Shown here: piece by piece, positions 2,716-7,626 of the stretch
Layout of the letters: each line of letters opens with the position of its first letter
Numbering within the stretch: the stretch's first letter is position 1
Assembly (NCBI RefSeq): GCF_053078305.1
Contig: NZ_CP166879.1
DNA length: 64,000 nt
Direction: 5' to 3' (one strand)
The notes under the pieces: generated by a model
The model's input: the letters and a program-made list of their open reading frames with translations, nothing else
What the model was told of the DNA's origin: nothing
Databases searched by the model: none
Program-made: the position numbers and the translations under genes

Positions 2716-2943
2716 TTAACTGATTTGTTCAGCACCGATAAAACGGCAAATATTGCTGTAAGTTTCTGTCGCACCTTCGCGATCAAGTCCAACAGATATT
2801 GCCATTCGGGTGCGATCATTAAATTCAAAGAGTAAATCGCCACATTCTTCACTGTCAGACATGGAGACTGCTTTGACGTTATCGAAATTAACCAGGTAAA
2901 AGCGTCCGTAAATATCAGGAATATTAAATACCGCCATAATCAC
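2716..2943 (-). CDS. small early protein, possibly Kil-like (75 aa)
   Basis: Position immediately after the B-like gene and size match Mu kil; sequence identity not confirmed. Confidence 0.35.
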   Translation of the reverse strand: MIMAVFNIPDIYGRFYLVNFDNVKAVSMSDSEECGDLLFEFNDRTRMAISVGLDREGATETYSNICRFIGAEQIS

Positions 2944-3872
2944 ACCTGTGAAAGTAATTCAGGGTTGGTGTAAACCTCTTTAAAGGCCGCATTAATATGT
3001 TTTTCTGTCAGCGCCGCGCCTTCACCGCTGGCGGTGAGCCACGCCTGGTTAAGCGTATGTGTCAGAACGCGTAACGCCCCCGGCTTTTCAGCGATAGCCT
3101 GCATGACGGCCAGCTCGGCCTCACCACTGATCCCCCACGCCCTGGCAATGGCCAGCACATCCGCCTTTTTGGCCTTGCGAAGTTGTTTTGTACGGGCAAG
3201 ACGGCTGAACAGGCGCGATAAATCATCAAAGGCGCGGCGTCCACCTTTAAACAATCCGCGCGGGTTACCAATAAGTACCATCCCGATCCCCGTGGCGTCC
3301 TGAATTGCCCGGAGTTGTTCCAGACCGTCAATACCAAGATGATCTGCTTCGTCAACAATCACCAGTCCACGTGTTCCCGTCAGGCGACGGCGGATGGCGC
3401 GGGATAATGCCCCTTTGTTCGCGCGGGTGTAATCAATCCCCAGCGCATCGGCCAGCTCCAGCAAACACTCCGTGACGCTGGAGTGCGCGGGCGACAGGGT
3501 GATCATCCAGGTGTTCGGTTGCTCCTGACAGTAATTACGGGCCGTGGCCGTTTTACCCACACCCGGTACGCCCACAATGACGTTAATACAGCCCATCAGG
3601 CGAACCGCCTGAAACAGTGCGCGCAGCTCCTGGACTGTCTGCGTTTCAACAAACTGTGGCGGCTCGGGCAGTGCGCTTTGTTTATTCCAGTTCTCATACC
3701 AGGAACGCAGGGAAGCAGCCACAGCAGCGTTATCGCCTTTATATTTTCCCTTACGGAAAGCCGATAATGTGCCGTCGGAAATTCCCGCCTCTCTGGCGAT
3801 GGCATACTGCGTCAGTACGCCGCCATCAATAAGTTCATCAATGGTCTTGATTACATCGTTAATATCAGTCAT
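2940..3872 (-). CDS. MuB-like DNA transposition ATPase
   Basis: 310 aa, Walker A GVPGVGKT, N-terminal HTH-like segment, located after transposase as in Mu. Confidence 0.8.
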   Translation of the reverse strand: MTDINDVIKTIDELIDGGVLTQYAIAREAGISDGTLSAFRKGKYKGDNAAVAASLRSWYENWNKQSALPEPPQFVETQTVQELRALFQAVRLMGCINVIVGVPGVGKTATARNYCQEQPNTWMITLSPAHSSVTECLLELADALGIDYTRANKGALSRAIRRRLTGTRGLVIVDEADHLGIDGLEQLRAIQDATGIGMVLIGNPRGLFKGGRRAFDDLSRLFSRLARTKQLRKAKKADVLAIARAWGISGEAELAVMQAIAEKPGALRVLTHTLNQAWLTASGEGAALTEKHINAAFKEVYTNPELLSQV

Positions 3873-3943
3873 ATTATTAACCTCTCATTTGATACCTTGT
3901 TTAATCAAATAACCTGAGTCGCCGCTCGGGTTATTTTTTTATT

Positions 3944-6034
3944 TCAGGCCAGCGGGTCATTTTCTTTTAATTTCGCTTCCAGCAACTGCAATCCCCGCTG
4001 GAAATTACGCTCGTATTCTTCATCAGGTTCATCGTCAGCGACCGGTTGCTGAACGGTCACCGTATTACCCACAGGGCGGTATATGTTTTCCAGCCAGGGC
4101 TCCTGCGGCTTGTGCTCCAGCACGTTGACAACCTCATCCTCGGCATCACGGATTTTTTCCTCTGCGCGTTTACGCATGCCTTTAAGGCGTTGCTGCTGTT
4201 TGTAGTATTCCGCACTAACCGGGAAGGCTTCGCGTTTATTACCGTCCCATACCGCCTCGCAAATCACGCTGCCATCCAGGCGACGTACGGTAATTCGTTC
4301 GGCATCATGAATGTCATAGCTGATAAGCACCTTACGACCATGCTCGTCACGCAGCTCGGGCGCGTAGTAAATATTATTCAGCCAGCGTATTTCACAGCGT
4401 CTTACAGGGCGTTCCACCATCGGCCGGAACATATCCCGCAGCTCAACATCGGACAGCCATTCAATTTCCGTGTCCTCTTCCGCCAGGCGTTTTTTTCTGA
4501 ACTCCGCCGGGCTGTAATGCTTGCCGTTCGGCTTCACCGGTAATTCATCGTGCGGCCGGTTGTTGTACCACTCAACACCGTCACGAATGGCATCAATCAG
4601 TTCAGACCAGGACGGTAAATCACGCATCGCTGACTGCTGCCGGACGTTCAGCCGTTTGCCCTGTTGCAGGGCAGTAAATGCCGAGCGTAAATCGCGGTTG
4701 GTTTTGCGTAACGTCTCGCGATCTGCACCTTTCCCGAAATAGGTGCGGTATTTACGGGCTATGCGCATCGGTAATGTGCGGTTAAGCCGTTCGATAATGC
4801 CTCGTCCCTGCGGATTACCGGCAATCCCGGTCGGGTGATTAATCCCCAGTCGCGGCAGTATCCCCACAACCTCCTTATCCAGGATGTCGGCGGTTTCCCC
4901 GGAGCCGTTATCCGAGTAATACAGAAACGGTTTGCCGTGATGGCGAATGCCGTGCTGTATGGCACCGGCTACGGCGAAAACATTTTCAGCCAGGTCAAGG
5001 CTCCAGCCCACCACAAAGCGCGTGCCACCGTCGATAACAAAGGTCACTTCCGGTGCAAATGGCCGACCGTGAACCGGGTGTGCGCATTTCAGTTTCATGC
5101 CGTGACCGTCACCAATCCAGACATAATTCACCGGCATTTTTGACCAGTCGCGGCGCGTGAATCCCTCAAGCTGGCGGTATTCACTGCCGGTCACCCGGCC
5201 TTTTTGTTTCACCACTTCCGGCAGTTTCTTCATTGCGCGGCGAATGGTGTCATAAGACGGCATGATATCGAGCATATAAGGCTCATCAGCGTGCCGGTGC
5301 TGCCATTCAGCAACAAAATCCTCGTAAGCCTCGGTCATTGGTCGGCCGTTTGACTGGCGATACTGCGCCAGAAATTCGGGCAGCCAGTTAATATCTTCGG
5401 CTTTTATTTCCTGGCGCTTACCCGGTGCCAGTAAAAGCAGGCGTTCAGCGGCGTTCTGCGCCTTGTTAAAGGCCGCAATCCAGCGTTTCAGCGTGATTTC
5501 ACTTAACGCACGGCTGTTTCCCTTTTTGGCGTTCGCCGTCTCAACCATTGCCACAATGCGCTCGTCCAGCTGCGAACGTGCCAGGTTGTCAACGATAAAC
5601 CGGATAGCCTTCGCACAGCTGAAACCAGGTTGTTGCGCGACTTTCAGAACTTCGCTGACGATCGCGATTCGTGCATCAGCCACCTGGCGCTGGTTTTCAG
5701 TCAGGGCATTAAGGCGTTCGACCATCAGTTGTGGTGATCCGCGATATGCCTCCACCGCATCAACCACGGCAGGCGAGCGTCTGGCCTTTGTCACCACTGG
5801 AGCCGGTGATTCATCGACTTTTTGAGTCATCAGTTGCAGGGCGTAGCGTTCACGTAATGCCTGCTGCGTCACTTCAGGTAAACAGTCGATGCTGTATTCA
5901 GTTGCTTTAGAGCCTGAGCGACGACGGGAACAACAGCTTTTCCCTTGTACGTAACGTTGTAATGCCTGGCGAATACCTTTTGTTGTAGCAGGCATTCCGG
6001 GCGCGCCAATCAGTTCTTTTGCAATGACATACAT
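3944..6034 (-). CDS. MuA-like DDE transposase
   Basis: 696 aa ORF directly downstream of ner-like gene; size and position of Mu A. Confidence 0.8.
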   Translation of the reverse strand: MYVIAKELIGAPGMPATTKGIRQALQRYVQGKSCCSRRRSGSKATEYSIDCLPEVTQQALRERYALQLMTQKVDESPAPVVTKARRSPAVVDAVEAYRGSPQLMVERLNALTENQRQVADARIAIVSEVLKVAQQPGFSCAKAIRFIVDNLARSQLDERIVAMVETANAKKGNSRALSEITLKRWIAAFNKAQNAAERLLLLAPGKRQEIKAEDINWLPEFLAQYRQSNGRPMTEAYEDFVAEWQHRHADEPYMLDIMPSYDTIRRAMKKLPEVVKQKGRVTGSEYRQLEGFTRRDWSKMPVNYVWIGDGHGMKLKCAHPVHGRPFAPEVTFVIDGGTRFVVGWSLDLAENVFAVAGAIQHGIRHHGKPFLYYSDNGSGETADILDKEVVGILPRLGINHPTGIAGNPQGRGIIERLNRTLPMRIARKYRTYFGKGADRETLRKTNRDLRSAFTALQQGKRLNVRQQSAMRDLPSWSELIDAIRDGVEWYNNRPHDELPVKPNGKHYSPAEFRKKRLAEEDTEIEWLSDVELRDMFRPMVERPVRRCEIRWLNNIYYAPELRDEHGRKVLISYDIHDAERITVRRLDGSVICEAVWDGNKREAFPVSAEYYKQQQRLKGMRKRAEEKIRDAEDEVVNVLEHKPQEPWLENIYRPVGNTVTVQQPVADDEPDEEYERNFQRGLQLLEAKLKENDPLA

Positions 6035-6035
6035 A

Positions 6036-6284
6036 TCATGACGCCTTTCTCATATAGCTCTTAACCTGGTATCGACTGGGCCAGATTTCTTCAGGCGATA
6101 CCCCAAGAGCATCAGCAATTATTTGCTGATACGGTCGGCAAGGAGTACGTAATACGCTTTTCAGCGAATCCCTGCTGTAACCAGCCTTTAAAGATAAAGA
6201 GCGCAGTGATAAGCCAGCCATGTGTAAGCGCGCCTTGATGATTTCAGGCGGCCAATCGTGATCTGAAACTTCTCTTCTACTCAT
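6036..6284 (-). CDS. ner: Ner-like DNA-binding regulator
   Basis: 82 aa; C-terminal IIADALGVSPEEIWPSRYQ resembles Mu Ner. Confidence 0.75.
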   Translation of the reverse strand: MSRREVSDHDWPPEIIKARLHMAGLSLRSLSLKAGYSRDSLKSVLRTPCRPYQQIIADALGVSPEEIWPSRYQVKSYMRKAS

Positions 6285-6354
6285 ACTTCCTCTATTCTAA
6301 AAAGTTACCCGCGCGGATATTCGTGCGGATATCTGTACGGGTAAATAATGCATC

Positions 6355-6395
6355 ACTAAAAATACCAAATCAAGGTATTTTTGGTATTTTGGATA
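6355..6395. promoter_or_regulatory. operator/promoter region between divergent ner and c genes
   Basis: Inverted and direct repeats aaaatacc / ggtatttt (x2) in the divergent intergenic region. Confidence 0.4.
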
Positions 6396-6474
6396 ATTTT
6401 TGCTTTTATCCTTATTTTTCAATTGGATAAATAGAAAGAAACCTTTCCTTAGAAAAGCACCAAGAGGTATCTTT

Positions 6475-7005
6475 ATGTCGCAGGGAAAAGAACCTGTTAT
6501 TGAACGTATTGGAATGCTTACAAAGCGCTACCCTTCAAGAAGTGCAGCTGCCAGAGCGTGGGGAATCAATATCAACACATTAAACAGCTATTTCAAGGGA
6601 GGACAAACACAACCAGCCCCCAGAGAAAGTATCCTTATACGAATTTCTGAAAGTGAAGGAGTTAGTCTTGAGTGGCTTAAAGAGGGCAAGGGTGAATCAC
6701 CAAATGATGTTGGTATTTGTGGTAATTTTGGTTGTTCTGGTGATAAGGGAGATCAGCTTACACAGATGCTTTCATTCCTTACGAAAGACGAACGAGAACA
6801 GTTAACCAATCTCCTTGCTCGCAAAGGTGTAGAGACGGTTCTGACACTACTGGATAAAGAAAACCAGGATTTATTACAACTAGAAGGCAGGAAGCGCCTG
6901 GCTGCGTTGATGATTGTAGATATGCCAGACGATTGCGTCAGAGAGATTTTGGAAAAAACCGAGACAAGTAGGCAATCAAATCCGGTAGAATCTAAAGCGG
7001 GTTAG
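6475..7005 (+). CDS. prophage repressor (c-like)
   Basis: Divergent from ner, reads toward the prophage end; HTH-like N-terminus; AGAGG SD before the ATG at 6475. Confidence 0.65.
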   Translation: MSQGKEPVIERIGMLTKRYPSRSAAARAWGININTLNSYFKGGQTQPAPRESILIRISESEGVSLEWLKEGKGESPNDVGICGNFGCSGDKGDQLTQMLSFLTKDEREQLTNLLARKGVETVLTLLDKENQDLLQLEGRKRLAALMIVDMPDDCVREILEKTETSRQSNPVESKAG

Positions 7006-7272
7006 TTTGGCGAGGCTGGCCCGTATGTTAGTTGCCATATAGATTTAATGAAGTTTTAAACGCTTTAAAAAAGTTGAGATCGCAGTATCAAAAGTTTTGC
7101 CGATTTTAGAATAAACGATTAATTATTGCACAATCGGTATCAAATAGACTTTAAGCGCTCATCCAGACATCACCTGTTTTATTTCAGTATCTTACAGGTG
7201 ATTTCACCTCCTTTCACTAAAACCCTCGTTGGTATCAAATGATTCACCTGGTTACACCAGGCACAGAGTAAT

Positions 7273-7626
7273 GTGACCCAAATGATGCGCATGTTTAACT
7301 TTATGAAGAGTGTCGGCGCTACCCCCATCGTTAAAGCCATTGATGTTCCCGGTGAAAAACTGAACTCTCTGGAAGAACTGTTCCAAAAAACGATGGAAGA
7401 ATACGAGCAACGTTCTAGTACGTTGGCACAGTTAGCCGATGAAGCGAAAGAACTGAATGATGATTCAACCGTCAATTTCCTGCGCGATCTGGAAAAAGAA
7501 CAGCAGCATGATGGCCTGTTGCTGCAAACCATTCTTGATGAAGTGCGCAGTGCGAAACTTGCGGGTATGTGCCCAGTGCAGACCGACCAACATGTTCTGA
7601 ATGTCGTGTCGCATCAGCTGCATTGA
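7273..7626 (+). pseudogene. ftnB: ferritin-like protein FtnB, 5'-truncated by prophage insertion
   Basis: 117 aa ORF matches the C-terminal two thirds of FtnB; in-frame stop at 7240-7242 and no ferritin N-terminus upstream. Confidence 0.8.

Follow-up and report, generated by a model that had tools for sequence, protein, structure and literature searches.

The short inverted and direct repeats between ner and the divergent repressor gene c of a Sp18-type Mu-like prophage are most probably the primary immunity operator of this prophage, the site at which its repressor, c, binds. The evidence is comparative. The repeats combine into one palindrome whose dyad falls on the -35 hexamer of the predicted early promoter, and across related loci the arms of this palindrome change with the DNA-binding class of c and not with the early proteins Ner and MuA. 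In addition, a matching cluster of repeats is embedded in the coding region of c itself, where it may act as a second, distal operator.

The Prophage and Its Early Region

Positions 2940-7256 of the window (the whole stretch of 64,000 nucleotides that was analysed) make up the left end, with the early genes, of a Mu-like prophage of Sp18 type that sits in ftnB. The left end of the prophage is at 7256 (...ATGATTCACCTGGTTACA, ...GGTTACA). Because the host DNA past this position, in 7256-7626, is the 3′ part of ftnB, comprising two-thirds of the gene, ftnB has been disrupted by the prophage. Just within the prophage end (7195-7250), GATTTCACCT / GATTCACCT motifs are repeated near 7200-7209 and 7241-7249; judged by their letters, they look like terminal MuA binding sites (attL L1/L2). 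The early operon lies on the minus strand in the order ner (first gene), MuA and MuB. The product of ner (6036-6284) is an HTH protein of Ner type of 82 aa (Pfam PF13693 HTH_35, 2.5e-19; PHROG 769), with a weak NCBIfam match to SfsB/Nlp. MuA (3944-6034) combines the Pfam domain Mu-transpos_C with the Mu N-terminal DNA-binding domain (PF02316, 6.9e-6), and MuB (2940-3872) is recognised by Phage-MuB_C. The repressor gene, c (6475-7005, plus strand; 176 aa; PHROG 3037, 1e-62), is divergent from ner, and the gap between the two genes measures 190 bp (6285-6474). The original prediction had placed a lysis/lysogeny switch in this very gap, and both its location and the names given to the flanking genes, ner (HTH_35, PHROG 769) and a repressor (PHROG 3037), are correct.

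The prophage DNA is 99% identical to an "inserted Mu-like phage" annotated within two records of Stx-converting phages, and the control region is about 98% identical to that of prophage Sp18 of E. coli O157:H7 Sakai. Sp18 has been described as intact and of Mu-like type, and as refractory to induction by mitomycin C (PMC2669165). Prophages of this type are common in Shiga-toxin-producing E. coli; genes serve as targets of their transposition (ftnB in this case), and so, too, do Stx phages. The 190-bp control region is matched in 194 of 5,426 complete E. coli genomes; grouped by intergenic identity, 107 records fall at 95% or above, 74 at 80-90% and 6 at 60-80%. The relatives compared here include Pseudomonas phage VW-6B, the Yersinia phages Tongde and vB_YpM_5, divergent E. 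coli prophages and viral contigs, together with 10 further loci from other Enterobacterales genomes that were found by scanning a genome collection; two of these 10 lack the anchor motif, a conserved motif in the HTH of c. In total the comparison covers about 25 loci, which are related to one another, and the first analysis was carried out on 20. A search of the literature for operator, binding, footprint or transcription-start data on Sp18-type phages returned none.

The Predicted Early Promoter and the Repeats

A leftward promoter of the sigma-70 type with a TANNNT -10 element occurs at the homologous position in 20/20 loci, with a spacer of 17 nt (18 in one), and it was recovered in 7 of the 8 out-of-sample loci that have the anchor. 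In the window its -35 hexamer is TTGATT (6368-6373) and its -10 hexamer CATTAT (6345-6350), both on the minus strand and separated by 17 nt. Elsewhere the -35 reads TTGAAT, TTGACA, TTGACT, TTTACA or TTTACG; since the hexamer remains -35-like despite differing in sequence among lineages, it appears to be a functional promoter element. This predicted promoter is the early promoter, Pe, of ner-A-B, and the position of the -10 element predicts a start near 6338. Pe scores 8/12 against the consensus, and therefore went unreported by the generic promoter scan.

The opposing promoter, Pc, is represented by a low-confidence plus-strand candidate with -35 TTGGAT (6389-6394), an 18-nt spacer and -10 TATTTT (6413-6418). 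At a lenient threshold, about half of the loci contain a plus-strand -35/-10 pair whose -10 is at +35 to +56 from the Pe -35; across the loci, no plus-strand promoter was located at a fixed homologous position, and inspection by eye of the palindrome next to ner revealed nothing convincing as a face-to-face Pc. There is also a candidate for a second leftward promoter, TTGAAA-18-AATTAT at 6422..6393, with a -35-like TTGAWW in many loci and an unconserved -10. A TCAAT(N2-3)G(A/T)TA block (6417-6422 in the window; TTGAWW in the minus reading) is conserved some 45-55 bp rightward of the Pe -35, at homologous positions in L018, L019, L020, L001, L025, L026, L036 and L037. This block could be the -35 of the second leftward promoter or part of Pc.

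The repeats on which the original prediction was built are all in place: AAAATACC at 6359-6366 and GGTATTTT at 6374-6381 and again at 6383-6390 on the plus strand, the former being the minus-strand copy of the latter. In the 64-kb window the 8-mer GGTATTTT occurs 7 times against 2.7 expected, and three of these occurrences fall inside 32 bp. Relatives whose DNA is only about 70% identical still have the block in the same position, as do some 25 loci in total, and this conservation rules out chance as the origin of the repeats. Inverted symmetry can be read as a perfect 11-nt repeat, AAAATACCAAA/TTTGGTATTTT, at 6359-6369 / 6380-6390, or as a 12-nt repeat of 92% identity at 6355-6366 / 6374-6385. 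When the loci are aligned on the -35 hexamer, both registers become parts of one palindrome of 37-40 bp, ATCACTAAAAATACC-AAATCAA-GGTATTTTTGGTATT in the window, with its dyad at 6370. The left arm, ATCACTAAAAATACC (6352-6366; minus-strand reading GGTATTTTTAGTGAT), contains AAAATACC, fills the Pe spacer and is one mismatch away from the family consensus arm GGTATTTTTGGTGAT. The right arm, GGTATTTTT GGTATTTTG (6374-6391, plus strand), consists of the two direct copies of GGTATTTT and lies immediately upstream of the Pe -35; the part of it that belongs to the palindrome proper, GGTATTTTTGGTATT, extends over 6374-6388. Perfect 15-nt arms, ATCACGAAAAATACC / GGTATTTTTCGTGAT, are found in L024 and L042 (the centre in L024 being 7 nt), and near-perfect ones in L025, L028 and L002.

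Each arm comprises two sub-sites, an inner GGTAT and an outer GGTGAT or GGTAT, 9-10 bp apart. The inverted plus direct arrangement that had been described is therefore that of a palindrome with two sub-sites per arm, which also explains why two alternative inverted-repeat registers can be drawn. The inner pair, ATACC-N7-GGTAT, forms a 17-bp palindrome of lambdoid size. Because the whole palindrome is centred on the conserved -35 of Pe, a protein bound to it would occlude the early promoter.

The Palindrome Adjoining ner

Between the Pe -10 and the ribosome-binding site of ner, a separate palindrome, TTACCCGCGCGGATATTCGTGCGGATATCTGTACGGGTAA (6305-6344), with four TTAYCCG-like half-sites, spans approximately -6 to +34 of Pe. 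Across 14 diverse loci, 87.5% of cells are paired and 5/16 pairs show compensatory change. The palindrome is identical in the window and in L018, which share Ner and not c. By its location at the Pe start it is probably the Ner site, a candidate Ner operator that would correspond to the Ner sites of Mu and D108. The alternative is a 5′ hairpin in the early RNA: folded as RNA, the element has a dG of -16.3 kcal/mol (z = -3.0) and is followed by CUUUUU. The pair counts fit the DNA and the RNA reading alike; G-U pairs occur only on the strand of the early transcript.

The Repressor

In an AlphaFold2 model built from an alignment of 18 sequences, c has an N-terminal HTH domain (residues 8-70; pLDDT about 88), a disordered linker (71-90; pLDDT 42) and a helical C-terminal domain (91-167), which is presumed to drive oligomerisation. 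The HTH domain shows the five helices of the Cro/CI fold (8-16, 22-29, 33-39, 51-61 and 65-70). Foldseek comparisons of this domain match P22 c2, 434 Cro/repressor, SinR, 186 CI and ImmR, with target-normalised TM-scores of 0.66-0.75 (P22 c2, 434 Cro, SinR, ImmR) at E-values of only 0.1-0.5. By its modelled fold, c is a Cro/CI-type HTH protein. Sequence searches of Pfam, NCBIfam and the PDB assign c to no significant family; at this level, the matches are a weak alignment to 4ich (an XRE-type regulator) and the PHROG repressor families, so that PHROGs and the fold comparison are the informative sources. The Mu-repressor domain of Pfam (PF02316) is absent from c, and BLASTP detects no similarity between c and the N-terminus of MuA (E = 19).

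The start of c has shifted in the lineage of the window. Most relatives begin c about 25 nt earlier, with M-x-K-E-x-x-G-S-F encoded from AAAAGAAC-N6-GTTCTTTT; in the window lineage this ancestral start codon is lost (TTA at 6449-6451). What was ancestral N-terminal coding sequence is now a relic in the 5′ UTR, AAAAGCACC-AAGA-GGTATCTTT (6453-6474, plus strand), within which lies the present Shine-Dalgarno sequence, AAGAGG (6462-6467). Repeat D2 pairs AGGTATTTTT with AGGTATCTTT. At the c 5′ end (6449-6494 in the window, 1468-1530 in L024, and in others) there are three AAA(G)GAAC(C) copies plus the complementary GTTCTTTT. These copies correspond to the Shine-Dalgarno sequence, codons 2-4 and the GKEP codons; the DNA is kept and the residues vary (NGT NNT TTT). 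From this pattern, the repeat may be an autoregulatory site for repressors of the GTTCT class. An RNA hairpin at the same place (AAAAGAAC-N6-GTTCTTTT) was considered and rejected: the consensus fold reaches only -1.96 kcal/mol and covariation is absent, while the repeat sequence itself is conserved.

At the other end of the gene, a terminator-like hairpin (6997-7024; 12 pairs, 5 of them G-C) overlaps the c stop codon and is followed by a weak T-run (ATGTTAGTTG); it may be where transcription of c ends. A tail of K-(K/A/V)-(A/V)-G or similar closes many c proteins, after a variable segment (alignment A4). The Mu repressor has a protease-sensitive C-terminal tail. By analogy, the tails of c recall that of the Mu repressor and may be related to the induction of these prophages, which are insensitive to mitomycin C.

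Co-variation and the Probable Binding Protein

The arms of the palindrome follow the HTH of c. Repressors with the motif SRSAAARAWG..N[IV]NTL accompany GGT[AG]TTTTTGGTGAT-type arms, and those with SR[SN]EAA[RK]AWG (often with QTLQ) accompany GTTCT-type arms. A natural swap between two E. coli prophages, that of the window and L018, separates the candidate proteins. Their Ner proteins are 100% identical and their MuA proteins 99% identical over the first 316 aa (the first 240 aa and the N-terminal DNA-binding domain being identical), whereas the c proteins share only 43% identity. Their DNA shows no difference from ner up to and including the Pe -10; beyond it the repeats diverge: ATCACTAAAAATACC / GGTATTTTTGGTATT in the window correspond to AGAACAAACAAAAGAACC / ...GTTCTTTTTATTCTT in L018, with GGTATTTT replaced by GTTCTTTT. 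Because the arms change with c only, the repeats belong to an immunity module with c and not with Ner or MuA. The L018 class retains GGTATTTT at its inner right sub-site, as in the window; the class boundary therefore lies inside the operator, and the specificities may overlap. A recombination boundary is visible at the Pe -10 (6345 in the window, 1261 in L018), and a shared core, AAATCAAGGTATTTT, sits midway in the variable operator. In E. coli, a minimum of three immunity types share a ner-A backbone that is otherwise nearly identical, and these types predict which prophages can superinfect which lysogens.

As in an immunity operator, the repeats (6352-6391) lie inside the gap that divides c from ner, the first early gene, overlap the core of the early promoter (dyad on the predicted Pe -35, left arm in the spacer) and co-vary with the specificity of the repressor. 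The switch operator that had been proposed is thus supported by comparative evidence, namely the position of the dyad and the way in which the arms track the HTH class of c. In the proposed mechanism, c oligomers would bind the four sub-sites of the palindrome; occupation of the left arm, within the Pe spacer, and of the right arm, adjacent to the -35 on its upstream side, would exclude RNA polymerase and keep the prophage silent, the repressed promoter being the one that drives ner, the transposase gene A and gene B. The 9-bp spacing of the direct sub-sites differs from the symmetric geometry of classic Cro/CI dimers.

Other ways of reading the repeats fare less well. They might be promoter architecture only, phased T-tracts serving as a UP element or bent DNA for Pe, Pc or both, or else sites of host nucleoid proteins like IHF, with no phage repressor involved. 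Indeed, the region is AT-rich, the right arm is at the position of a UP element and the core AATCAAGGTATTT matches the IHF consensus, WATCAANNNNTTR, at 12/13 positions. In Mu, an IHF site is located between O1 and O2 (PMC3820752). However, the function of a UP element or T-tract predicts neither palindromic symmetry nor class-specific changes of GGTAT/GGTGAT to GTTCT that follow the HTH of c, and it predicts no matching cluster 340 bp away, which leaves this explanation unlikely. The IHF site as such was discarded: in other classes (ATTCAA, CGTAAA and TGTCAA cores) the match is lost and the -35 reading is kept.

It is more doubtful that the repeats serve as the internal activation sequence, the transposition enhancer, with the N-terminal domain of MuA as its binding protein. 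MuA here keeps the Mu-type N-terminal DNA-binding domain (PF02316, 6.9e-6), and the region is about 890 bp from the left end of the prophage (7256), close to the position that the Mu enhancer occupies relative to its own left end. In Mu, the operators O1-O2 double as the transposition enhancer (PMC3820752). Yet the MuA N-terminal domains of the window and L018 match while their repeats differ and follow c, and c lacks any similarity to the N-terminus of MuA, so that the Mu logic of a site shared by repressor and transposase is inapplicable. The parts that are common to all immunity types, 6305-6344 or the AAATCAAGGTATTTT core, are likelier places for an enhancer; for the same reason, the palindrome at 6305-6344 could hold the MuA enhancer.

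The proposal that Ner, itself Cro-like, and not c binds the repeats has very little in its favour beyond their position in the ner-c gap and precedent. In Mu and D108, Ner is known to bind repeats between the early promoter and ner (for D108, a reference cited in PMC10434027). The swap speaks against it: Ner is 100% identical in the window and L018 though the repeats differ, and the constant element is the palindrome at 6305-6344. Finally, it is hardly credible that the palindrome is an RNA hairpin or intrinsic terminator of the plus strand (6355-6385), as a generic scan reporting a 12-pair stem and 7-nt loop followed by ATTTTGG might suggest, given that the stem contains only 3 G-C pairs, the loop is the conserved -35 hexamer, the arms hold to a repressor-class consensus rather than showing free compensatory variation, and no upstream plus-strand promoter was found to transcribe through it.

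Comparison With Other Phage Switches

With c taken as the probable ligand of the repeats, the region can be set beside known systems. In Mu and D108, the operators O1-O2-O3 lie between c and ner and overlap Pe and Pc (PMC3820752, citing Krause & Higgins 1986 and van Rijn et al. 1988). Like Mu and D108, the Sp18-type locus has its control region some 0.9 kb in from the left end, with a leftmost repressor gene on one side and ner-A-B on the other; several predicted repressor sub-sites overlap the early promoter, and a separate candidate Ner site adjoins ner. In contrast to the Mu repressor, whose winged-helix domain is a homologue of the N-terminus of MuA (PF02316), c is of the Cro/CI type and unrelated to MuA. 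Unlike in Mu, a single palindrome is centred on the Pe -35 and the IHF-like match is unconserved. Two features of a Mu-type operator/enhancer, a PF02316 repressor and a conserved IHF site, are thus missing at this locus, and a DNA search returned only Sp18-type relatives, with no similarity to Mu. Because a repressor with a lambda-type fold is unrelated to the transposase, the coupling of operator and enhancer seen in Mu cannot hold in the same form.

The resemblance to lambda, P22 and 434 extends to the DNA-binding fold, the 17-bp inner palindrome and the location of the site between divergent lytic and repressor genes. As in the lambdoid phages, heteroimmune variants arise by the joint swap of repressor and operator. 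The lambdoids, however, have three tandem 17-bp operators, whereas here one composite palindrome carries extra direct sub-sites at 9-10 bp; their repressors have a C-terminal domain of the LexA/S24 peptidase type, whereas that of c is all-helical in the model. Mitomycin C reportedly fails to induce Sp18 (PMC2669165), again unlike the lambdoids, and the anti-repressor role is here taken by Ner. Among the Pseudomonas transposable phages of the B3 type, overlapping promoters pE and pC2 lie between repc and ner (PMC9936078). As in B3, c and ner are divergent, the opposing promoters (here predicted) are packed into the gap and ner is the first early gene; the repressors of B3 and D3112 were not retrieved as relatives of c in the phage collection, and these phages are not known to have an operator sequence in common with it. 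The Sp18-type switch, previously unmapped, has an operator of a known kind, and the candidate operator embedded at a distance is its unusual extra.

A Distal Operator-Like Cluster Within c

A second cluster of operator-like repeats lies about 340 bp from the primary operator, within c and beyond the stretch covered by the original prediction. It consists of ATCACC (6696-6701) and, on the plus strand, the 9-bp tandem GGTATTTGT GGTAATTTT GGTTGTTCT GGTGAT (6712-6744), and it codes for linker residues 74-90. In the 64 kb, the right-arm 19-mer is nearly matched at only one further place, 6712-6730, against an expectation of 0.03. With up to 3 mismatches, the consensus arm GGTATTTTTGGTGAT has 8 matches in place of the 1.97 expected, and 6 of them are in the clusters 6352-6397 and 6712-6744. 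In 15/18 loci, the best match within c to the arm of the same locus is at +328 to +372 from the Pe -35. When the distal regions are compared with the arms of all classes, they match those of their own class at 12-15 of 15 positions and those of other classes at 8-12. Shuffling locus by locus gives p = 0.00-0.18 for the loci that have the cluster, in a whole-gene codon shuffle that leaves the A-rich composition of the linker uncontrolled. In the later genome set, the distal site is at the predicted position in 3/7 loci; since one of them, L042, is nearly identical to L024, the independent cases are just L044 and L051. The site is undetected or absent in three operator classes (L001/L045, L046/L047 and L021/L040/L050).

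The codons of the cluster fall on the disordered, length-variable linker. The motif is read as (S/T/I)-P-K in L024, L028, L023 and L025, as N-T-K in another frame in L002 (Yersinia phage Tongde), and in the window from the opposite strand, which yields the peptide GICGNFGCSGD with Gly at every third residue. Since both the reading frame and the orientation of the motif vary among the loci, the DNA rather than the peptide appears to be under selection. From these sequence patterns, the chances are about even that c carries an auxiliary operator in its linker codons, co-evolving with the primary one and serving for looping or as an autoregulatory roadblock. In the first case, the cluster would pair with the primary operator through a DNA loop, and in the second it would obstruct transcription, giving stronger repression or autoregulation. 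If this is true, the peptide sequence of the linker is dictated by a regulatory DNA site, and the disordered segment offers a clear case of such dictation.

Operators that loop from a distance include lac O2 in lacZ (+401), the flanking sites of 186 CI about 300 bp from pR, lambda OL-OR and TP901-1 OD. Like lac O2 (for lac looping, see PMC4027209) and the 186 flanking sites, the cluster would be a second cognate one, a few hundred bp off and inside a coding region; unlike them, the candidate distal site occupies the linker codons of the repressor itself and co-varies with the primary operator. The strand of the cluster is flipped in the window lineage with respect to all other loci (6696-6744 in the window, 2135-2182 in L002). 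The inverted sub-sites ATCACC ... GGTGAT bracket the cluster in both, which suggests a small, frame-preserving inversion between them.
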